A stretch of DNA of 64,000 bases from Escherichia coli (GTDB lineage Bacteria; Pseudomonadota; Gammaproteobacteria; Enterobacterales; Enterobacteriaceae): the NCBI RefSeq assembly GCF_022846255.1, contig NZ_AP025682.1; one strand, written 5' to 3'. The translations under genes and the position numbers were made by a program. The notes below the pieces were generated by a model, which saw only the letters and a list, made by a program, of their open reading frames with translations, was not told where the DNA came from and did no database searches. Below are positions 3,197-60,547 of this stretch, in pieces. Numbering within the stretch: position 1 is the first letter of the stretch; the number at the start of each line of letters is the position of its first letter.

Positions 3197-3691
3197 ATGG
3201 TTACTTTCCACACCAATCACGGCGATATTGTCATCAAAACTTTTGACGATAAAGCACCTGAAACAGTTAAAAACTTCCTGGACTACTGCCGCGAAGGTTT
3301 TTACAACAACACCATTTTCCACCGTGTAATCAACGGCTTTATGATTCAGGGCGGCGGTTTTGAGCCGGGCATGAAACAAAAAACCACCAAAGACCCGATC
3401 AAAAACGAAGCCAATAACGGTCTGAAAAATACCCGTGGTACGCTGGCAATGGCCCGTACTCAGGCACCGCACTCTGCAACTGCACAGTTCTTCATCAACG
3501 TGGTTGATAACGACTTCCTGAACTTCTCTGGCGAAAGCCTGCAAGGTTGGGGTTACTGCGTGTTTGCTGAAGTGGTTGAAGGCATGGACGTGGTAGACAA
3601 AATCAAAGGTGTTGCAACCGGTCGTAGCGGTATGCACCAGGACGTGCCAAAAGAAGACGTTATCATTGAAAGCGTGACCGTTAGCGAGTAA
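3197..3691 (+). CDS. ppiB: Peptidyl-prolyl cis-trans isomerase B (cyclophilin)
   Basis: 164 aa [27 protein letters not shown]... cyclophilin fold. Confidence 0.97.
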
Positions 3692-3693
3692 TC

Positions 3694-4416
3694 GTGGCGA
3701 CACTCTTTATTGCAGATCTTCATCTCTGCGCGGAAGAACCGGCGATCACCGCCGGTTTTCTGCGTTTTTTAGCGGGGGAGGCCCGCAAGGCCGATGCGCT
3801 GTATATTCTTGGCGATCTGTTTGAAGCCTGGATCGGCGACGACGATCCCAACCCGCTCCATCGCCAGATGGCGGCAGCGATCAAAGCGGTGTCCGATTCC
3901 GGCGTTCCCTGTTATTTCATTCATGGCAACCGTGATTTTCTGCTCGGCAAACGCTTTGCCCGTGAAAGCGGCATGACGTTATTGCCGGAAGAAAAGGTGC
4001 TCGAACTTTATGGTCGTCGGGTGTTGATTATGCATGGCGACACGCTGTGCACCGATGACGCGGGTTATCAGGCTTTTCGTGCCAAAGTCCACAAACCCTG
4101 GCTGCAAACGCTATTCCTCGCCCTGCCGTTGTTTGTGCGCAAACGCATTGCCGCGCGAATGCGCGCGAACAGTAAAGAAGCCAACAGCAGTAAATCGCTG
4201 GCGATCATGGACGTTAACCAAAACGCGGTGGTCAGTGCGATGGAAAAACATCAGGTGCAATGGCTGATTCACGGGCATACCCATCGCCCGGCAGTACATG
4301 AACTTATCGCCAATCAGCAACCTGCTTTCCGCGTCGTGCTGGGTGCCTGGCATACGGAAGGTTCAATGGTGAAAGTCACGGCGGATGACGTTGAGCTGAT
4401 TCATTTTCCGTTTTAA
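3694..4416 (+). CDS. lpxH: UDP-2,3-diacylglucosamine pyrophosphohydrolase LpxH
   Basis: 240 aa calcineurin-like phosphoesterase (DLHL, GNRD, GHTH motifs); GTG start 3 nt after the ppiB stop. Confidence 0.93.
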
Positions 4417-6123: not shown

Positions 6124-6309
6124 GCCGGATGCGGCGTGAACGCCTTATCCGGCCTACCGTTCCAACACCGCCTGTAGGCCTGATAAGATGCGCCAGCATC
6201 GCATCAGGCATGGTGTGCCGATTGCCGCATGCGGCGTGAACGCCTTATCCGGCCTACCGTTCCAACACCGACTGTAGGCCTGATAAGACGCGCCAGCATC
6301 GCATCAGGC
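6124..6309. repeat. REP/BIME cluster; two tandem ~100 bp units
   Basis: gccggatgcggcgtgaacgccttatccggcctac and its inverted partner gtaggcctgataaga...gcatcaggc occur twice in tandem. Confidence 0.8.
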
Positions 6310-14410: not shown

Positions 14411-14452
14411 GTCATACCACTCGCCTGATTATTTTTAGCTATGTTGGATTTT

Positions 14453-14479
14453 GCCACGGTTTATACCGTGGCTTTTTTT
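14453..14479 (+). terminator. Rho-independent terminator of the allDCE operon
   Basis: gccacggt-ttat-accgtggc hairpin followed by TTTTTTT. Confidence 0.55.
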
Positions 14480-14494
14480 GTAGTCAATTCAGGT

Positions 14495-27466: not shown

Positions 27467-27668
27467 GCCGGATGCGGCGTGAACGCCTTATCCAGCCTAC
27501 AGGTGAGTGCTGTTTCGTAGGCATGATAAGACGCGCCTGCGTCGCATCTGGCATCGGCGCACAACTGCCAGATGCGGCGTAAACGCCTTATCCGGCCTAC
27601 ACAATCTTGCAAAATCAATATATTGCTCGATCCTCGTAGGCCTGATAAGCGAAGCGCATCAGGCAATC
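27467..27668. repeat. REP/BIME cluster
   Basis: Several gccggatgcggcgt(g/a)aacgccttatccggcctac-type palindromic units in alternating orientation. Confidence 0.8.
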
Positions 27669-33113: not shown

Positions 33114-33262
33114 TTGTAGGCCTGATAAGACGCGCCAGCGTCGCATCAGGCATCCGCACATAGCCGCCGGATGCGGCGTGAACGCCTTATCCGGCCTACC
33201 AAACCGTGCTAATTCAATACATTGCAGGTGCCATGTAGGTCTGATTAGACGCATCAGGCATC
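33114..33262. repeat. REP/BIME cluster
   Basis: gtaggcctgataagacgcgccagcgtcgcatcaggc and gccggatgcggcgtgaacgccttatccggcctac units. Confidence 0.8.
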
Positions 33263-34854: not shown

Positions 34855-35772
34855 ATGCTTATCTTTATCCCTATTCTCATTTTTGTCGCGCTGGTCATTG
34901 TTGGCGCGGGCGTCAAAATCGTGCCGCAGGGCTATCAGTGGACAGTAGAGCGTTTTGGTCGCTATACCAAAACGTTACAGCCAGGTCTAAGCCTGGTGGT
35001 GCCCTTTATGGATCGCATTGGTCGCAAGATCAATATGATGGAGCAAGTGCTCGACATCCCTTCCCAGGAAGTTATCTCGAAAGATAACGCCAACGTTACC
35101 ATCGACGCCGTGTGCTTTATTCAGGTGATTGATGCCCCGCGCGCCGCCTATGAAGTCAGCAATCTGGAGCTGGCGATCATCAACCTGACCATGACTAACA
35201 TCCGTACCGTGTTGGGTTCAATGGAACTTGACGAAATGCTCTCTCAGCGCGACAGCATCAACTCACGCCTGCTGCGTATTGTCGATGAAGCCACTAACCC
35301 GTGGGGGATTAAAGTCACCCGTATTGAAATTCGCGACGTGCGCCCACCGGCAGAGCTTATCTCTTCAATGAACGCGCAGATGAAAGCGGAACGTACCAAA
35401 CGCGCTTACATCCTTGAAGCGGAAGGGATCCGTCAGGCGGAAATCCTCAAAGCCGAAGGTGAAAAACAGTCGCAAATCCTGAAAGCGGAAGGTGAACGTC
35501 AGTCGGCATTCTTACAGGCCGAAGCGCGTGAACGTTCTGCCGAAGCGGAAGCCCGCGCCACCAAAATGGTGTCTGAAGCCATTGCCTCCGGCGATATTCA
35601 GGCGGTGAACTACTTCGTAGCACAGAAATACACCGAAGCGTTACAGCAGATCGGTTCCTCCAGTAACAGCAAAGTAGTGATGATGCCATTAGAGGCCAGC
35701 AGCCTGATGGGGTCGATTGCCGGGATTGCCGAGCTGGTGAAAGACAGCGCCAACAAACGGACTCAGCCATGA
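34855..35772 (+). CDS. qmcA: SPFH/stomatin-family protease QmcA
   Basis: 305 aa with N-terminal TM segment and band-7 domain. Confidence 0.93.
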
Positions 35773-36227
35773 TGGAGTTAATGGTCGTTCATCCACATAT
35801 TTTCTGGCTCAGTCTCGGCGGGTTGCTGCTGGCAGCCGAGATGCTGGGCGGAAATGGTTATTTGTTGTGGAGCGGCGTGGCAGCGGTGATTACCGGTCTG
35901 GTGGTCTGGCTGGTGCCGCTGGGTTGGGAGTGGCAAGGGGTGATGTTTGCCATTCTGACACTGCTCGCCGCCTGGTTGTGGTGGAAATGGCTGTCGCGGC
36001 GGGTGCGCGAACAAAAGCACAGCGATAGTCATTTAAACCAGCGCGGGCAGCAGCTGATTGGCCGACGTTTTGTGCTGGAATCTCCGCTGGTCAACGGGCG
36101 CGGTCATATGCGCGTCGGTGACAGTTCATGGCCTGTCAGCGCCAGCGAGGATCTCGGTGCAGGTACGCATGTTGAAGTCATTGCGATAGAAGGGATAACG
36201 CTGATCATCCGTGCGGTCATCGCCTGA
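35769..36227 (+). CDS. ybbJ: NfeD-like membrane protein YbbJ
   Basis: 152 aa; start overlaps the qmcA stop (coupled SPFH/NfeD pair). Confidence 0.9.
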
Positions 36228-36329: not shown

Positions 36330-36692
36330 TTACTCTTCCCGGCCTTTACCCATACTTTTTTGGTCTTCATCCGGATAGTGTTTTTTTAGATATTCCAGGA
36401 CGTTTTTATTGACCTTGTGTTGGGTATACACCCACCCTTTCCAGTAATCAGGTTGGTCCAGGTAAACTTCTGGCGGAATGGTGAAATCAGAAAGCGTTAA
36501 CCATTCGGCTAACAGATCGGGGTTTCGTTTCTGGATCAACTGCAACAGCATGATCAGCGACATGGCAGAGGCAGGAGCCGTACTATCGCCGCTTAAATAC
36601 TTCCACACTGTCGACCGGTTCGAACGAAAAAGGATCGGTAGCAATGCCCGGTCCAGATTCATTTCATTAAAAATCTTCTCAAATTCATTCAT
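36330..36692 (-). CDS. Hypothetical 120-aa protein, possible Cro/C1-like HTH; not recognised as a K-12 gene
   Basis: Clean ORF with caggaaa RBS 7 nt upstream of the ATG; the segment RSTVWKYLSGDSTAPASAMSLIMLLQL resembles an XRE-type recognition helix; divergent from the adhesin gene. Confidence 0.55.
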   Translation of the reverse strand: MNEFEKIFNEMNLDRALLPILFRSNRSTVWKYLSGDSTAPASAMSLIMLLQLIQKRNPDLLAEWLTLSDFTIPPEVYLDQPDYWKGWVYTQHKVNKNVLEYLKKHYPDEDQKSMGKGREE

Positions 36693-37057
36693 TTAAATTT
36701 CCTGCCTGGCGTAAACCTCTTAAAAATTGAGATTTATCAAAGAAACGCATTTTAGCACACATCAGGAACCGCTTCACGTTTAGTCCAGAAACAGAATTTA
36801 TTTCGCTTATCAAAACAAGTCTTTACTCTTTTTTACATTGAAAGAGCACGAAATAATTTCCTTTTTTATTTATATAAGAAACTATTTTTGTTTCTTATTG
36901 GTGGTGTTTACGCTTACACAATACAAAAATGCGCTTTACATCACACAAATGGCGGCGTAGATTTCGATCAAATTGCAACGCAGTTTATTTCTTAAAACAA
37001 TATTATTTGTTTCTTATAGAAACATTAATGCGACTTATTTTGAACAAGAGAAAATGA

Positions 37058-38074
37058 ATGAAAACTGTAAACGTAGCTTTACTGGCACTCATAATTTCAG
37101 CAACATCCAGCCCTGTTGTTTTAGCTGGTGATACCATTGAAGCGGCGGCAACAGAGCTTTCAGCCATTAACTCCGGCATGTCGCAATCGGAGATTGAGCA
37201 GAAGATTACCCGCTTTTTAGAACGCACAGACAACAGCCCCGCTGCGTATACCTATTTGACTGAACATCACTACATCCCTTCTGAAACACCTGATACCACT
37301 CAGACTCCCACTGTCCAGACAGATCCTGACGCAGGACAAAAAACCGTTGCCGCTACAGGTGATGTACAGACAACCGCCCGTTATCAGAGCATGATCAACG
37401 CCCGACAGTCTGCGGTAACTGACGCCCAGCAAACGCAAATTACAGAGCAACAGGCGCAGATCGTAGCCACACAAAAAACGCTCGCCGCGACTGGAGATAC
37501 GCAAAATACCGCGCATTATCAGGAGATGATTAATGCCAGGCTGGCGGCTCAAAATGAGGCTAATCAGCGCACTACCACGGAACAAGGGCAGAAAATGAAT
37601 GCACTGACAACCGATGTGGCAGCACAACAGCAAAAAGAAAGGGCTCAATACGATAAACAAATGCAAAGTCTGGCGCAGAAGTCTGTCCAGGCACATGAAC
37701 AAATTGACAGCCTGTCACAAGACGTAACCCAAACGCATCAGCAGTTAAGCAACACGCAAAAACGAGTAGCGGATAATAGCCAACAGATTACTACGCTCAA
37801 TAACCATTTCAGTTCGCTGAAAAACGAAGTTGAGGACAACCGTAAAGAAGCCAATGCGGGAACTGCATCAGCCATCGCTATCGCCTCACAACCACAGGTG
37901 AAAACCGGTGACGTGATGATGGTGTCAGCGGGAGCGGGAACGTTCAACGGTGAATCTGCGGTGTCTGTAGGAACATCTTTTAATGCCGGAACGCATACGG
38001 TACTTAAAGCAGGTATTTCTGCGGATACACAATCTGATTTCGGTGCGGGTGTCGGCGTGGGATATTCGTTCTAA
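37058..38074 (+). CDS. Short head-less trimeric autotransporter adhesin (type Vc, YadA-like C-terminal anchor)
   Basis: Signal peptide MKTVNVALLALIISATSSPVVLA|GD; Q/T-rich coiled-coil stalk with a 45-aa tandem repeat; C-terminus ...SAVSVGTSFNAGTHTVLKAGISADTQSDFGAGVGVGYSF fits the 4-strand YadA anchor ending in an aromatic residue. Confidence 0.75.
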   Translation: MKTVNVALLALIISATSSPVVLAGDTIEAAATELSAINSGMSQSEIEQKITRFLERTDNSPAAYTYLTEHHYIPSETPDTTQTPTVQTDPDAGQKTVAATGDVQTTARYQSMINARQSAVTDAQQTQITEQQAQIVATQKTLAATGDTQNTAHYQEMINARLAAQNEANQRTTTEQGQKMNALTTDVAAQQQKERAQYDKQMQSLAQKSVQAHEQIDSLSQDVTQTHQQLSNTQKRVADNSQQITTLNNHFSSLKNEVEDNRKEANAGTASAIAIASQPQVKTGDVMMVSAGAGTFNGESAVSVGTSFNAGTHTVLKAGISADTQSDFGAGVGVGYSF

Positions 38075-38127
38075 TTTTAACAGCAATTTCTTATTCGCAA
38101 TTTTCCGCACATTATTTAAGGTTAACA

Positions 38128-38550
38128 ATGATGAATAGCTCCATTAAATCGTTTTCCCTGCTGGCGGTTATATTACTGGCTGGCTGTAGCTCACCCGCTT
38201 CCCGCATCGCAGATTGCCAGGCGCAGGGCGTCAGTCATGACACCTGTTACCTCGCAGAACAGCAGCGTCAGTCGGCTATTTTAAGTGCATCCGAAGCGCA
38301 GGCATTTAAAAATGCAGATGCCGCACAACATGCCCAGGCGGCAAAGAAAGCCATTTATAAAGGATTTGGCATGACCTTTAGAATGAGCAGTAAAAACTTT
38401 GCTTATCTCAATGATTCATTATGTGCAATTGATGAAGACAATAAAGATGCCACTGTTTATCAGTCAGGTCTGTATAACGTCATTGTTTATCACCATACGG
38501 GAAAAGTCGCCTTAATGAAGGAAGGTCAGTTTGTGGGTTATTTAAAATGA
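38128..38550 (+). CDS. Hypothetical lipoprotein (lipobox LLAGC, +2 Ser)
   Basis: MMNSSIKSFSLLAVILLAG|C signal/lipobox; aagg RBS; lies 53 nt downstream of the adhesin gene on the same strand. Confidence 0.65.
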   Translation: MMNSSIKSFSLLAVILLAGCSSPASRIADCQAQGVSHDTCYLAEQQRQSAILSASEAQAFKNADAAQHAQAAKKAIYKGFGMTFRMSSKNFAYLNDSLCAIDEDNKDATVYQSGLYNVIVYHHTGKVALMKEGQFVGYLK

Positions 38551-38750
38551 AGGAGCAAAGGAAAATCCCCCTGACGCATATTATGATTATCGGTGCGTTT
38601 ATTTTTGCCTTCTTGCAAGTGGTGTTATTAGCCTCCCTGGTTCACGCTGTGAATGTTAACAACGAAATCCAGGAAGGCTTATTTCAGTCGGGGCGCATTA
38701 TGGTAGAAAGTTTGCAGCATATTCTTTCGGTGCAAACGGAGATTAACTGA
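38547..38750 (+). CDS. Hypothetical 67-aa single-pass membrane protein
   Basis: Start overlaps the lipoprotein stop (ATGA); one hydrophobic helix IMIIGAFIFAFLQVVLLASLV; stop lies 3 nt from the cueR stop. Confidence 0.5.
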   Translation: MKEQRKIPLTHIMIIGAFIFAFLQVVLLASLVHAVNVNNEIQEGLFQSGRIMVESLQHILSVQTEIN

Positions 38751-38753
38751 TTT

Positions 38754-39161
38754 TCACCCCGCCCGATGATGACAGCAGCCGGAGAGATTTTCGATAATCG
38801 GGCAGTCGGCGCTGTCATCGCCAGGGCAGGCATTCGCCAGCGCCAGTAGCTGGTTGCGCATGGATTGCAGTTCTTCGATATGCCGTTCGATCTCCGCCAC
38901 CTTCTCCAGCGTACGACGTTTGACGTCGGCACTATGACGCTGCGGATCGTTAAACAGATTCACCAGTTCGCCGCTCTCCTCCAGGTTAAAGCCCACCTGG
39001 CGTGCCTGGCGCAGTAAGGTCAGTTCGTTGAGATGCTGCTGCGTGTAGGTGCGATAACCGTTTTCGCTGCGCATCGGCGGCGTCACCAGCCCCTTCTCTT
39101 CATAGAAGCGAATGGCTTTGCTGGTCAGGCCGGTAATTTTTGCTACATCGCTAATGTTCAT
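38754..39161 (-). CDS. cueR: MerR-family Cu(I)-responsive regulator CueR
   Basis: 135 aa with N-terminal MerR HTH and C-terminal metal-binding Cys residues. Confidence 0.95.
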
Positions 39162-39285
39162 CGTTCGCGCAACGCCTCCTGTGCTTTGTTAAAGGGTTTC
39201 AACAAATATTCAAGCACGTTTTTTTGCCAGTGCGAATATCGACCGCCACCACAATAATACAGGAAGTACTGCGCACAGAGAGATG

Positions 39286-40578
39286 TTATACGGTTTTATT
39301 GCGCTTCATGACCATTGCCACAATAAGGCTGAGTAAGATTGCACCAATAATCCATATCAACGCACGGCTGCCCTGGGACCACAGGCTGTAGATAAAGCCA
39401 ACGATCACCAACAACATCACCAACGTACCAACGATAAGAATCGGCAACGAGGCGTGAATATCATGACGTAGGCGGATCGCCACCACAAACACCGCCAGAT
39501 AGCAGATCAAAAAGGTGGCGCTGGCAACGCTGGCGAGTGAGCCTAAATTCAGCGCCGCCGTCATCAGCATAATCAGCACCACGACAATGATGTTGCCCCA
39601 GGTACTCTGCCGCCACAGGGATTTATTCATTAGCTTCGGCAGTTCGCGTTCGCTGCCCATGTTGTCCATGATGTTAAACACGGCGAACAGGTTCGCGTTA
39701 ATGGCTGAAGCCGTCGCCAGTAAAGCGCCGATGACGACGATCACATAACCCACATGCCCGAGCAGCGGAGAAGCAGCCTGCGCTACGGCGGTATCGGCAT
39801 ATTTTTCTAACTCTAATGCCGATACATCGCTAAGCAAAACCAGCGCCAGCGAGATATAAAGCAACGTGGTAACGCCAATCGCCACCAGAAACGCCCGTGG
39901 CATTATGACCTCCGGATCTTTCACTTTATCCGCCGCGTTCGCCATCATGCCAAAGCCCGCATAGGCAAGGAAGGTTATCCCGATACAGGAGAAGAACGCC
40001 CCGGAGCTGGGGGGCGCAGAAACGGAAATATGCGCCGGTTGCAGCGACCAGACACCGGCAATAATCAGCAATAACAGGATCATCATTTTAATTCCGACGA
40101 GGATCACTTCCAGCCGCCCTACCGCATGGTTGCTTAAGGAGTTGAAAAGCGTCATCACCGCAATGATCCCCAACGCGTAGAGCAAAATAAGGTGCTCCTC
40201 CTGGCTGCCTTCATGCAAAAACTGCACGGCATAAGCGCCAAAAGCACGGGCGACCATGGCGATACTCACCGCCAGCGTCAACAGGTACAATAACGAGAGC
40301 GCCAGCGAAAAAACGCCGTTGCCTAATCCGCGACGAAAGAAGTCGATAATACCGCCATTGCTGGGATAGCTCGCCCCCAGACGCGCATAGGCATAACCGG
40401 AAAACATCGCCACAATACCGCCAAAAGCAAAGGCGACCCAGGTCGAGGCTTCCATTAGCAACGCAGCCTGCCCCAGCAGCGCGAAGATCCCCGCCCCCAC
40501 CATTGCCCCAATGCCGATGGAAACGACGTTCCATAGACCGAGGGGTTTGTTACCGTTATTACCTTCCGTGTTCATCAT
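39286..40578 (-). CDS. ybaT: APC-family amino-acid permease YbaT
   Basis: 430 aa 12-TM transporter downstream of glsA. Confidence 0.9.
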   Translation of the reverse strand: MMNTEGNNGNKPLGLWNVVSIGIGAMVGAGIFALLGQAALLMEASTWVAFAFGGIVAMFSGYAYARLGASYPSNGGIIDFFRRGLGNGVFSLALSLLYLLTLAVSIAMVARAFGAYAVQFLHEGSQEEHLILLYALGIIAVMTLFNSLSNHAVGRLEVILVGIKMMILLLLIIAGVWSLQPAHISVSAPPSSGAFFSCIGITFLAYAGFGMMANAADKVKDPEVIMPRAFLVAIGVTTLLYISLALVLLSDVSALELEKYADTAVAQAASPLLGHVGYVIVVIGALLATASAINANLFAVFNIMDNMGSERELPKLMNKSLWRQSTWGNIIVVVLIMLMTAALNLGSLASVASATFLICYLAVFVVAIRLRHDIHASLPILIVGTLVMLLVIVGFIYSLWSQGSRALIWIIGAILLSLIVAMVMKRNKTV

Positions 40579-44707: not shown

Positions 44708-45502
44708 ATGGATCTGTTGTACCGGGTAAAAACGCTTTGGGCCGCGCTGCGCGGTAATCATTACACCTGGCCTGCTATCGATATCTCTCTTCCCGGCAAT
44801 CGCCATTTTCATCTGATTGGCAGTATTCATATGGGCAGCCACGATATGGCTCCCCTGCCCACCCGTTTGCTCAAAAAGCTCAAAAACGCCGATGCGCTGA
44901 TCGTCGAGGCGGATGTTTCCACCAGCGATACGCCTTTTGCTAATTTGCCTGCCTGCGAGGCGCTGGAAGAGCGCATTAGCGAGGAGCAATTACAAAACCT
45001 GCAGCACATTAGCCAGGAGATGGGCATTTCTCCGTCGCTCTTTTCTACCCAACCGCTGTGGCAAATCGCGATGGTTCTTCAGGCGACGCAGGCGCAAAAA
45101 CTGGGGCTGCGGGCAGAATACGGTATCGATTACCAGCTATTGCAGGCGGCGAAGCAACAACATAAACCCGTGATTGAACTGGAAGGGGCAGAAAACCAGA
45201 TTGCCATGTTGCTCCAGCTCCCTGACAACGGACTGGCGCTGCTGGACGATACGCTGACCCACTGGCACACCAATGCACGGTTGCTGCAACAAATGATGAG
45301 CTGGTGGCTGAATGCGCCGCCGCAAAATAATGAAATAACGCTGCCTAATACGTTCAGTCAGTCGCTGTACGATGTGCTGATGCATCAGCGAAATCTCGCC
45401 TGGCGGGACAAATTATGCGCCATGCCGCCGGGGCGCTATGTGGTCGCAGTCGGTGCACTACACCTGTATGGAGAAGGGAATTTGCCGCAGATGTTGCGCT
45501 AA
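44708..45502 (+). CDS. ybaP: TraB-family protein YbaP
   Basis: 264 aa MDLLYRVKTLWAALRGNHYTWPAIDISLPGN...; strong RBS aagggagg. Confidence 0.9.
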   Translation: MDLLYRVKTLWAALRGNHYTWPAIDISLPGNRHFHLIGSIHMGSHDMAPLPTRLLKKLKNADALIVEADVSTSDTPFANLPACEALEERISEEQLQNLQHISQEMGISPSLFSTQPLWQIAMVLQATQAQKLGLRAEYGIDYQLLQAAKQQHKPVIELEGAENQIAMLLQLPDNGLALLDDTLTHWHTNARLLQQMMSWWLNAPPQNNEITLPNTFSQSLYDVLMHQRNLAWRDKLCAMPPGRYVVAVGALHLYGEGNLPQMLR

Positions 45503-45584
45503 AAAAATGGCCAATATCGCTATTGGCCCGTCAAAGAGGAATTTCATATTTTTATTATTATGCCGTCACTTTAAGCGACGGTGT
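45501..45584 (-). ncRNA. chiX: ChiX (MicM/SroB) small regulatory RNA
   Basis: Minus-strand sequence acaccgtcgcttaaagtgacgg...ttgacgggccaatagcgatattggccattttttt matches the remembered ChiX sequence, including the terminator hairpin and U-tail, in the ybaP-ybaK spacer. Confidence 0.8.
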
Positions 45585-58615: not shown

Positions 58616-60547
58616 TCAAATGGGGCGGATACTGTCTTCATCCAGCTCCGCATCGAAGAACCGACGCAGGGTCTGAATATTATTATCCGCAATAATGGAC
58701 TCGCGCGCCTGCGCAAGTTTTTCTTCGTATATCGCCTGACGCCATTCCAGCGGCGTACGCACCGCGGGATTATCATCTTCAACGATAGTCAGTTCAACCG
58801 TTGAACCTTTTAACGTGCTCAACGCTTCAGCCAGTTTTTGCTGTGCACCGCGGTTGTTCAAATGCCGCTGAGAGGAGCGCAAATGCAGACATACTGCGTT
58901 GTCGCTCTCCTCTTTCCAGGCATTTAACGCCACCTGTTCGACCAGTTTTGGTAGCGAAAGTTGACTCACCTGTGCCGCCCACGGGTCGCGCTCAATGGCT
59001 TCTGCCGCCAGCTTCGCCGCCAGTTCCGGCGTTTTTTCATGTTCCAGCGCTTTTTTCAGCGCCTTCGGCGTGGCGACCACTTCTTTTTGCTGCATCACTG
59101 GAGTGGTCGCCTTCCAGCGATACGCTTCTTTTTTAGCTGGCGCTTTTTCCAGCGCCGATGGCACCGGGCGCGCCTGAACACGATCGGTGACCGAAGCCAG
59201 TCTTTCCAGCGCAGCGTTATTCACCGGCCGCGCGCGGGTAGCGGCTGCCGGTTCACTCTTTTTTGCTTTGGTTGCTCCCTGCACGCGCTGCAACTGCTGG
59301 CGCGCCGCCAGCACCTGGCTGGTGGTTTCCGGGAGCGGTACAGTCGGTGCCTGCTGCGGCGCTGATTGCGGTTGCGGCGGCACCTGTGTTGGCGTCATTA
59401 CTGCCGTTGGCGCGACGGGCGCAAAGGACTGGCGTGGCACTTCTGGCTCAGGCAGCGGCATACGCGGATGGAACGCCAGCGCGCGAAGCAGCGTCATCTC
59501 AACGCCCATACGGCGGTCTGGCGCATACGGTAATTCTTTGCGACCAATCAACAGCGTCTGATAGTAAAGCTGAATATCCGTCGGCGGTATGGTGCGCGCC
59601 AGTTCACGCATCCGCAGCTCGATGGCAGCCATATCGTTGCCAAGTGCAGCAGGCGAAAGTTGTACCATCGCAATACGATGCAACAGACCGAGCATTTCCA
59701 CCAGCAACGCTTCCCACTCGATACCACGGGCAGCGGCTTCATTAATCAGCGCCATTACGCGCTCGCCGTTGGCCTCGACCATCGCTTCAACCAGCGACAG
59801 CGCCTGATCATCGTCAAGCGTACCCAGCATCGCACTGACCGCCTGGGTTGAAACCTGGCCGTCACCGCTGGCAATCGCCTGGTCGGTCAGACTTAAGGCA
59901 TCTCGCAGGCTGCCTTCAGCGGCGCGTGCCAACAATTGCAGCGCCCGCGGCTCGTGAGCGATATGTTCTTCGTTGAGGATGTGCTCAAGCTGATGGCGAA
60001 TTTGCTCGACATCCAGCGCCTTGAGATGAAATTGCAGACAGCGTGACAAAATCGTCACCGGCAATTTCTGCGGATCGGTCGTCGCCAGCAAAAACTTAAC
60101 GTGCTCTGGCGGCTCTTCAAGGGTTTTTAACAGTGCGTTAAAGCTGTGGCGCGACAGCATATGCACTTCGTCGATCAGATAAACTTTGAAACGACCACGC
60201 GCCGGAGCGTACTGGACGTTATCCAGCAGGTCGCGAGTGTCTTCAACTTTAGTGCGCGAGGCGGCGTCGATTTCAATCAGATCGACAAAGCGCCCCTGCT
60301 CGATTTCACGACAGTTATCGCACACGCCGCACGGCGTCGCGGTAATGCCGGTTTCGCAGTTTAGCCCCTTCGCCAGCAGTCGGGCGATAGAGGTTTTTCC
60401 GACGCCACGGGTACCGGAAAAAAGATAAGCATGATGAATACGCCCTAACGACAAGCCGTTCGCCAGTGCGGTCAGCACATGTTCCTGGCCGACGACGTCA
60501 GCAAAGGTTTGTGGGCGCCATTTTCGGGCTAAGACCTGATAACTCAT
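58616..60547 (-). CDS. dnaX: DNA polymerase III subunits tau and gamma
   Basis: MSYQVLARKWRPQTFADVVGQEHV... AAA+ clamp-loader subunit; ATG at 60545-60547. Confidence 0.95.
   Translation of the reverse strand: MSYQVLARKWRPQTFADVVGQEHVLTALANGLSLGRIHHAYLFSGTRGVGKTSIARLLAKGLNCETGITATPCGVCDNCREIEQGRFVDLIEIDAASRTKVEDTRDLLDNVQYAPARGRFKVYLIDEVHMLSRHSFNALLKTLEEPPEHVKFLLATTDPQKLPVTILSRCLQFHLKALDVEQIRHQLEHILNEEHIAHEPRALQLLARAAEGSLRDALSLTDQAIASGDGQVSTQAVSAMLGTLDDDQALSLVEAMVEANGERVMALINEAAARGIEWEALLVEMLGLLHRIAMVQLSPAALGNDMAAIELRMRELARTIPPTDIQLYYQTLLIGRKELPYAPDRRMGVEMTLLRALAFHPRMPLPEPEVPRQSFAPVAPTAVMTPTQVPPQPQSAPQQAPTVPLPETTSQVLAARQQLQRVQGATKAKKSEPAAATRARPVNNAALERLASVTDRVQARPVPSALEKAPAKKEAYRWKATTPVMQQKEVVATPKALKKALEHEKTPELAAKLAAEAIERDPWAAQVSQLSLPKLVEQVALNAWKEESDNAVCLHLRSSQRHLNNRGAQQKLAEALSTLKGSTVELTIVEDDNPAVRTPLEWRQAIYEEKLAQARESIIADNNIQTLRRFFDAELDEDSIRPI
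59224..59264 (-). promoter_or_regulatory. dnaX programmed -1 ribosomal frameshift site (slippery heptamer plus downstream stem-loop)
   Basis: mRNA-sense A AAA AAG (plus-strand cttttttg at 59258-59264) at about codon 428, followed in the mRNA by a GC-rich hairpin (59224-59250) and a -1 frame stop after KKE. Confidence 0.8.

Follow-up and report, generated by a model that had tools for sequence, protein, structure and literature searches.

The Escherichia coli gene published as the regulator gmrA very probably encodes a trimeric autotransporter and lies in a conserved four-gene module

Introduction

The trimeric autotransporters (TAAs, type Vc outer-membrane fibres) with which the gene described here is best compared are NadA, YadA and the E. 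coli proteins Saa and Eib. In the stalk of YadA from Yersinia, right-handed 15-residue repeats give way to heptads close to the membrane, and HadA of Haemophilus influenzae biogroup aegyptius is reportedly a coiled-coil TAA with a very small head. In NadA3, residues 24-85 form the head, the receptor-binding part of an ectodomain that spans residues 24-350 (PMC6191539). Some TAA genes have accessory neighbours: SadB, a lipoprotein that helps to display a TAA in enterobacteria, is encoded in tight linkage with the TAA gene, and adhesin-less strains have lost both (PMC3953254). Here we present an in silico analysis of a gene of this kind, located at 37058-38074 on the plus strand of a 64,000-nucleotide stretch of Escherichia coli DNA (the window; contig NZ_AP025682.1, assembly GCF_022846255.1), covering its domain anatomy, the barrel that its anchor is predicted to form, its selection and distribution, and the conservation of the four-gene module to which it belongs.

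The protein resembles NadA of Neisseria meningitidis in having a signal peptide, a small N-terminal head, a long coiled coil with non-heptad insertions, a YadA-type anchor and a similar size. No sequence similarity between the two was detected, however, with NadA structures absent among the PDB matches at E ≤ 1; the non-heptad periodicity is 3.75 residues here, in 15-residue units, rather than in undecads; and the tip is not built on the coiled coil, since a linker that is rich in Pro and Thr and probably disordered lies between it and the stalk. With YadA it shares the anchor family (PF03895; PDB 2lme, E = 0.027) and a periodicity profile that changes in a similar way along the stalk, but Pfam finds neither the YadA_head β-roll repeats nor the neck, the protein is much shorter, and collagen binding is not to be assumed. 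Saa and Eib, brought into the comparison by a 'Saa-like' label given in 2007 and by a PHROG 'adhesin' match, are likewise TAAs of E. coli, a few hundred residues long and polymorphic in the length of their repeats. Unlike them, the gene here has its place in a fixed islet of the chromosome rather than on a plasmid or prophage; in tblastn, plasmid-borne E. coli TAAs matched its C-terminal stalk and anchor at no more than 32-41% identity, and tblastn against plasmids and phages for Saa and Eib gave only distant, anchor-level matches. As with SadB, a small lipoprotein gene is tightly linked to the TAA gene and lost together with it, but it is encoded downstream rather than upstream of the TAA, is accompanied by a gene for a 67-aa membrane protein, and has a Ser at +2 that suggests outer-membrane sorting, whereas SadB resides in the inner membrane; moreover, a profile built from three homologues of the lipoprotein retrieved neither SadB nor YajI from the PDB at E ≤ 10.

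The gene is already known and, as a TAA, ordinary; wherever it occurs in a RefSeq genome, it carries an annotation. The corresponding islet of O157:H7 is O-island 29 (OI-29), with z0638, z0639 and z0640 (PMC5826968), and Ogura et al. in 2007 listed ECs0548 as a 'Saa-like protein' among adhesion-related genes, found in UTI89, avian pathogenic E. coli and each of the eight O157 strains but not in O26, O111 or O103 (PMC2323221). Yang et al. give enteroaggregative E. coli (EAEC) 042 as a carrier of OI-29 (PMC5826968), and this strain is said to have two AT-2 systems, i.e. two trimeric autotransporters (PMC2808357). The exact protein is called 'YadA family autotransporter adhesin' in RefSeq and 'Adhesin' in UniProt. 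An initial reading of the window made from its letters alone (the sequence-only reading) had implied that the gene was new; with an annotation, a listing as adhesin-like from 2007 and the name gmrA already in place, that implication falls away. What retains interest is an unremarked conflict with the function published for GmrA, together with a conserved accessory module.

Results

The protein has a canonical YadA-type anchor

The open reading frame (ORF) at 37058-38074 is intact, starts with ATG and is preceded by AAGAG; its product shares 329 of 338 residues with the O157:H7 protein WP_000859816. The islet that holds it is 2.5 kb long, AT-poorer, and bounded by ybbJ (35769-36227) and cueR (38754-39161). 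The gene and its parts are as follows.

37058-38074, plus strand: trimeric autotransporter gene, 338 aa plus stop; orthologue of Z0639 / ECs0548 / 'gmrA'; protein WP_137500985.1
37058-37126, plus strand: Sec-type signal peptide, residues 1-23 (MKTVNVALLALIISATSSPVVLA, then GD), from a hydrophobicity scan, with pattern and A/GD junction kept across alleles; cleavage predicted
37127-37273, plus strand: N-terminal helical tip domain, residues 24-72, from the AlphaFold 2 monomer; many columns invariant across alleles
37274-37339, plus strand: Pro/Thr/Asp/Gln-rich linker, residues 73-94, from composition and low model confidence; site of the extra modules in longer alleles
37340-37609, plus strand: two diverged 45-aa repeats, residues 95-139 and 140-184, each of three 15-residue units
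37610-37852, plus strand: stalk, residues 185-265, periodicity about 3.6-3.75 shifting to heptad (3.5) in sliding windows; continuous helix in the model
37853-38071, plus strand: membrane anchor, residues 266-338, end of the pore helix and four β-strands, ending GVGYSF; from PF03895, PDB anchors and the linked model

The product is very probably a type Vc outer-membrane fibre, and its C-terminus provides the clearest evidence. Searching with hidden Markov models, as the sequence-only reading had suggested, we found YadA_anchor (PF03895) at residues 279-338 over model positions 1-60 of 60 (E = 2.6e-11), the sole significant Pfam domain of the protein. Anchor chains of AtaA, Hia and YadA in the PDB were matched at E = 1.4e-6 to 0.027, and a PHROG 'adhesin' family of 492 positions was matched over residues 95-338 (E = 1.8e-21). 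The coiled-coil stalk (148-276) runs without a break into the anchor, and the protein ends, with a C-terminal aromatic residue, in GVGYSF. The four-strand YadA anchor and terminal motif that had been read from the sequence are thereby borne out, and so is the identification as a TAA, to which the barrel model and the purifying selection on the anchor described below also contribute.

To model the barrel, three copies of residues 242-338 were joined by 30-residue glycine-serine (GS) linkers and folded with AlphaFold 2 in an alignment with 11 homologues, including Hia, joined likewise. The model had a mean predicted local distance difference test score (pLDDT) of 78.5, rising to 85-94 outside the linkers, and a predicted template modelling (TM) score of 0.78, with each copy consisting of one helix and four strands of 10-11 residues. 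Foldseek grouped it with 12-stranded outer-membrane barrels, the best matches being KdgM (TM 0.79-0.80), NanC (0.61) and the NalP translocator, alongside FapF and the translocator of AIDA-I. In this in silico structure, four strands from each chain would build a 12-stranded barrel with the helices in its pore.

A small tip domain, a linker and a stalk of two periodicities precede the anchor

Residues 1-23 look like the cleavable signal peptide that had been proposed, as judged from a single Lys in the n-region, V-L-A ahead of G24 and a hydrophobic core whose Kyte-Doolittle mean over 11 residues reaches 2.59; the junction in longer alleles is a canonical A-F-A/GD. The domain that follows was modelled in the AlphaFold 2 monomer, from an alignment of 19 alleles, as three helices (27-34, 43-56 and 61-69; pLDDT 76-79), and it matches no Pfam family. 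All alleles of the family carry it, and it is also N-terminal in two distant TAAs of 633 aa (P0132) and 708 aa (P0129) that have their own YadA anchors; an exhaustive search with residues 24-94 found it only in its own family and in these two proteins. At E ≤ 10 Pfam gave no YadA_head or Hep_Hag repeats, neck or stalk families. The description of the protein as 'head-less' is therefore right as far as a YadA-type head goes and only partly right overall, because the conserved helical domain at 24-72 is present in every allele and also caps the 633- and 708-aa TAAs. The architecture is that of a small tip domain, a stalk and an anchor, as in NadA, and this three-helix domain of about 50 residues is most likely the ligand-binding or adhesive part. 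The gene for the 708-aa TAA lies in a phage-like region (L009 1-10127) with several DNA methyltransferases, an Acb2/Tad1-hairpin protein and a porin gene.

Behind the tip lies a linker whose residues 74-94 are 29% Thr, 19% Pro, 14% Asp and 14% Gln, and residues 77-104 are predicted to be disordered (pLDDT below 50 in the monomer). The monomer model then gives a long helix in two parts, 104-145 and 148-276, the second at pLDDT 81-96, with a break at G146-D147 inside a KTVAATGD-type motif. This motif (V/L-A-A-T-G-D) fits only loosely as a candidate β-layer, for which the published consensus is [aliphatic]-A-T-K-[polar]-[DE] (PMC4786415). Searched alone against PDB sequences, the stalk matched generic coiled coils (troponin, tropomyosin) and no TAA stalk structure.

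The two halves of the stalk differ in their packing. Over residues 95-190 the hydrophobic periodicity is 3.75 (its power was equalled by none of 3000 shuffles at 3.75, and by 0.2-0.5% of them when any period from 3.0 to 4.2 was allowed), so that one 45-residue repeat corresponds to three 15-residue units, while over residues 190-276 it is 3.50 (0 of 2000 shuffles); sliding windows trace this passage from pentadecad-like to heptad packing toward the membrane. Of the coiled coil of roughly 240 aa that had been predicted at the outset, the helical character stands, but the region divides into three parts, namely the domain of about 50 aa with three helices (27-69), a disordered P/T-rich linker (about 73-103) and a helix of about 170 residues (104-276), and heptad periodicity is confined to 190-276.

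The tandem 45-aa unit read from the sequence at K95 and K140 (DNA 37340-37609) was recovered clearly: K95-Q139 and K140-T184 are identical at 24 of 45 positions, with a local score of 110 against 32 ± 5.5 in shuffles (z = 14.2, 0 of 2000), and the shared residues cluster in KT(V/L)AATGD.Q.TA(R/H)YQ.MINAR at the start of each unit. The DNA of the two units is only 56% identical (76 of 135 positions) and Tandem Repeats Finder reported no DNA tandem repeat in the stalk, which together indicate an old, diverged duplication; on the latter result the idea of a slippage-prone repeat was dropped.

The gene is under purifying selection and represents the shortest class of a modular family

Between this gene and its O157:H7 orthologue the ratio of non-synonymous to synonymous divergence (dN/dS) is 0.09 overall, at a dS of 0.12. 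The anchor accounts for eight synonymous and no non-synonymous differences and the N-terminal 94 codons for one and none, respectively; against other Escherichia species, dN/dS of the anchor is 0.06-0.14. A homologue is present in 1382 of 5426 complete E. coli genomes, and in 1027 genomes at least 80% of the gene is matched at 95-99% identity. The gene is always chromosomal and occurs in one copy per genome, with two places in at most three genomes. Carriers include O157:H7, O55:H7, O145:H28, UTI89, RS218, CE10 and EAEC 042, and the gene is transcribed in Dulbecco's modified Eagle medium at 96 reads per kilobase per million (PMC5826968 Table S3).

Cluster representatives of the family, drawn from E. 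coli, E. marmotae, E. ruysiae and the cryptic clades, range from 325 to 586 aa, and the longest ORF, in strain ES5, encodes 600 aa. Signal peptide, tip domain, C-terminal stalk and anchor are constant throughout, and the middle is variable, holding no, one or two copies of a module of about 115 aa (RDNGQDTAIQ...TALMNGVKLSG...). The 338-aa form, whose cluster has 1187 member sequences, is a deletion-type short allele of this modular family (325-600 aa), the shortest allele class, from which the first ~115-aa module is missing; most relatives carry one or two extra. To that extent the view that the protein is among the shortest of all TAAs holds, but two PHROG families that share this anchor have profiles only 209 and 329 positions long, and there are shorter TAAs, HadA and DsrA among them. 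Among the 30 matches listed, the 22 that span the whole gene (95-99% identity) each have an intact ORF of exactly 1017 bp, and thus show no variation in repeat copy number of the kind that the sequence-only reading had proposed to look for. Copy number differs only between old allele classes: of 116 full-length cluster representatives, 107 have two repeats and six have three. In strain ES5 (L002 3241-5043), the RefSeq coding sequence WP_230047521.1 (349 aa, start 3994) begins at an internal start within the intact 600-aa ORF, which carries the signal peptide and tip domain, so that a long allele is mis-annotated as a short one.

The published function of GmrA conflicts with these features

The name GmrA was given to Z0639 by Yang et al. 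(2018), who presented the protein as a 'transcriptional activator' that binds the fliA promoter and for which CDD predicts a 'putative DNA-binding domain' (PMC5826968). Their deletion, cloning and qPCR primers all map onto the ORF at 37058-38074: gmrA-R lies at 37019-37060, ending at the start codon, and gmrA-03-F at 38074-38112, directly after the stop, and in the O157 locus this pair flanks 3236-4252 exactly. From the primer positions, GmrA is the same ORF.

On their account, a cytoplasmic activator would bind the fliA promoter and switch on class III flagellar genes, and the signal peptide and anchor would be irrelevant or misleading. The gmrA deletion mutant was less motile, had fewer flagella and lower fliA, fliC and motA transcripts, and was rescued by gmrA on a plasmid (PMC5826968), and the assignment as a regulator has been repeated in five later papers. 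Our searches of Pfam, NCBIfam, PADLOC and the PDB found no DNA-binding domain in the protein, however, only sub-threshold coiled-coil cross-matches, so that no sequence feature was found to support a DNA-binding activator; and the conserved signal peptide and outer-membrane anchor, the latter under strong purifying selection, are at odds with a cytoplasmic location. The Gln-rich coiled coil (residues 95-270) draws sub-threshold matches to SMC, DndD, JetC, AAA_13 and TMF_DNA_bd in four libraries, among them TMF_DNA_bd at E = 0.054 (residues 203-252), AAA_13 at E = 6.9e-4 and SMC at 22.8 bits against a cut-off of 567 bits. Such matches show how a coiled coil can pass for a DNA-associated domain, and we suspect that one of them is the 'putative DNA-binding domain' of Figure S3B in Yang et al.

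The design of the tagged proteins is also relevant. The protein used in the electrophoretic mobility shift assay (EMSA) carried His6 ahead of the full ORF, including the signal peptide (the primer begins ATGAAAACTGTAAACGTAGCTTTA), and the protein used for chromatin immunoprecipitation (ChIP) carried 3xFLAG directly after the terminal ...GYSF (PMC5826968). From what is expected of Sec signal peptides and of a C-terminal β-signal, both placements should block native targeting, and the EMSA and ChIP experiments therefore probably examined a mislocalised coiled-coil protein. Yang et al. (2018) never mention YadA or autotransporters; neither their paper nor the later papers citing it mention the signal peptide or the canonical outer-membrane anchor, our literature search found no paper linking GmrA with YadA or a trimeric autotransporter, and a search for 'Saa-like' with autotransporter returned nothing. 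We regard a cytoplasmic DNA-binding activator as very improbable.

Several points nonetheless weigh against a TAA. The EMSA shifts were specific, with competition, and ChIP followed by qPCR gave a 7.75-fold enrichment at the fliA promoter and not at flhDC or rpoS; motility was lost on gmrA deletion in eight strains, with complementation giving a consistent picture across them, and K-12 given gmrA became more motile (PMC5826968). A TAA does not directly explain the EMSA, ChIP and motility results. Deletion of OI-29 left the adherence of O157:H7 to HeLa or Caco-2 cells unchanged (PMC5826968). On the structural side, surface localisation and trimerisation are predictions, the barrel was obtained for an artificial construct held together by GS linkers, from an alignment only 12 sequences deep, and the full-length AlphaFold 2 monomer left the anchor unmodelled (pLDDT below 30), as is expected when one chain of an obligate trimer is modelled by itself.

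We also considered whether the gene, derived by deletion from longer alleles, might be in decay, its product neither displayed nor functional any more. The absence of the ~115-aa module found in most relatives would fit such a history, as would the existence of truncated or partial forms (clusters of 227-272 aa, and an IS1 in the islet of strain SCU-172) and the lack of an adherence phenotype on loss of OI-29. Yet the ORF is intact in every listed full-length match and covered to at least 80% in the 1027 genomes, neither the anchor nor the N-terminal domain shows an amino-acid change against O157:H7 despite the synonymous divergence, the gene is transcribed, and the deletion keeps the frame while taking out whole modules, the usual way in which TAA stalks vary in length; decay is highly improbable. 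A phage-derived receptor-binding or tail-fibre-like protein, to which matches to PHROG families filed under 'tail', phage genomes encoding proteins with this anchor at 27-42% identity, and the occurrence of the tip domain in the phage-like region of L009 might point, can be given next to no credence, since the islet has no phage genes and is flanked by ybbJ and cueR, and the phage matches span stalk and anchor only; phage-encoded proteins with a β-barrel anchor would more likely be outer-membrane proteins of lysogenic conversion than virion parts.

The TAA gene belongs to a four-gene module conserved in three genera

Within the islet, the TAA gene is accompanied by three small genes and a long intergenic region.

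36330-36692, minus strand: 120-aa gene (Z0640 orthologue), possibly an XRE/MqsA-type helix-turn-helix (HTH) protein, from weak HTH matches; the z0640 primer maps here
36693-37057, no strand: AT-rich intergenic region (GC about 0.35), probable promoter/operator from its composition and GTTTCT/AGAAAC repeats
38128-38550, plus strand: 140-aa lipoprotein (Z0638 orthologue), lipobox LLAG/C, Ser at +2; 53 bp after the TAA stop; z0638 primer at 38550-38588
38547-38750, plus strand: 67-aa single-pass membrane protein, from the ORF; its start overlaps the lipoprotein stop by 4 nt (ATGA)

Searches of NCBIfam, PHROGs, PADLOC, Pfam and the PDB assigned no known family to the lipoprotein or the 67-aa protein, and none to the 120-aa protein beyond its weak HTH matches (MqsA_antitoxin at E = 0.12, and Xre-like-HTH at E = 0.047 in one homologue). 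The 120-aa gene is probably a local regulator of the module, and if OI-29 encodes a DNA-binding regulator at all, it is a more plausible candidate than Z0639. The 365-bp intergenic region contains the palindrome GTTTCTTATAGAAAC at 37009-37023, AGAAAC-N7-GTTTCT at 36877-36895 and a 22-bp tandem repeat at 36984-37027, and its GTTTCT/AGAAAC half-sites are possible operator sites; it has one weak sigma-70-like site (36935-36963), and such sites are no more numerous there than in shuffles.

Where the TAA gene is present, the lipoprotein and 67-aa genes always come with it, and strains without the TAA are missing all four genes. A scan of contigs with lipoprotein patterns yielded three loci. Each of the three neighbours has homologues beside TAAs in other Escherichia species, in a Pseudocitrobacter metagenome-assembled genome (MAG; L011) and in CP174503.1 (L008), the small membrane protein in the corresponding position in L008 and L011, which makes the four-gene module conserved in three genera; because the scan patterns were very specific, this taxonomic range is a lower bound. 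Identities to the proteins of the window are as follows.

120-aa HTH-like protein: 44% in CP174503.1 (E = 6e-37), 68% in the Pseudocitrobacter MAG
Lipoprotein: 49% in CP174503.1, 69% in the Pseudocitrobacter MAG
64-67-aa membrane protein: 43% in CP174503.1 (E = 2e-12), 47% in the Pseudocitrobacter MAG

Between genera, the lipoprotein hardly varies over its last ~60 residues. The TAA of the Pseudocitrobacter MAG has 363 aa, a different tip and one KTISAMGD repeat. In CP174503.1, the four-gene module contains two TAA genes in tandem, encoding 633 and 588 aa (L008 4001-7732), with the tip domain only in the first. By analogy with SadB, the lipoprotein and the small membrane protein may be accessory or biogenesis factors.

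The gap between ybbJ and cueR is a variable hot spot, and in some strains a gene for a 407-aa hypothetical protein replaces the TAA module or stands beside it (L003 1777-3000, L002 5843-7066). On the other side of the islet, cueR is directly followed by ybaT in the window (38754-40578); beside cueR, O157:H7 and strain ES5 have a type I secretion locus with an HlyD-family adaptor and an ABC permease/ATPase (L001 4963-7509), of which strain EC12 has only a frameshifted fragment. An Rfam scan of the window found nothing in or near the TAA locus; its matches elsewhere, three naRNA4, STnc480, sroB and the dnaX frameshift element (6177-6254, 27520-27597, 33119-33196, 14417-14483, 45501-45584 and 59219-59283), are ordinary E. 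coli features unrelated to it.

Discussion

From the anatomy described above we infer export, trimerisation, surface display and an adhesive function for this protein. By what is established for TAAs, the 23-residue signal peptide would route each chain through Sec, and four C-terminal β-strands from each of three chains would form one 12-stranded barrel, inserted by the β-barrel assembly machinery (BAM) through recognition of the terminal ...GYSF. The three passengers would then pass out of the pore and assemble as a trimeric coiled coil about 20-25 nm long, in which, from the membrane outward, a left-handed heptad segment (about 190-276) would be followed by the two 45-residue pentadecad-like repeats, interrupted by the conserved KTVAATGD motif, by the flexible Pro/Thr linker and by the tip domain. 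The motility phenotype of gmrA mutants would then arise indirectly, through a protein of the cell envelope and not through DNA binding.

Two further, rather unlikely readings may be put forward. In the first, the four-gene module would be a new type Vc accessory system, in which a lipoprotein unrelated to SadB and the 67-aa protein are needed for display or anchoring of the fibre, under control of the HTH-like gene. In the second, the effect of gmrA on motility would be real and derived from the envelope, with the surface fibre or its biogenesis feeding into fliA expression. If the second were true, it would provide a case of an adhesin positively linked to flagellar synthesis, the opposite of the usual antagonism between adhesins and motility.

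The sole functional paper on this gene, and five later papers citing it, treat its product as a horizontally acquired transcription factor, and this is where the analysis has corrective value. If GmrA is a trimeric autotransporter, as is very probable, it would come off the lists of E. coli regulators and its motility phenotype would need another explanation. The protein itself would then be a surface protein encoded by about a quarter of complete E. coli genomes and uncharacterised as an adhesin, and the conserved linkage of its gene to those for a lipoprotein and a small membrane protein offers a modest new lead for the biogenesis of trimeric autotransporters.

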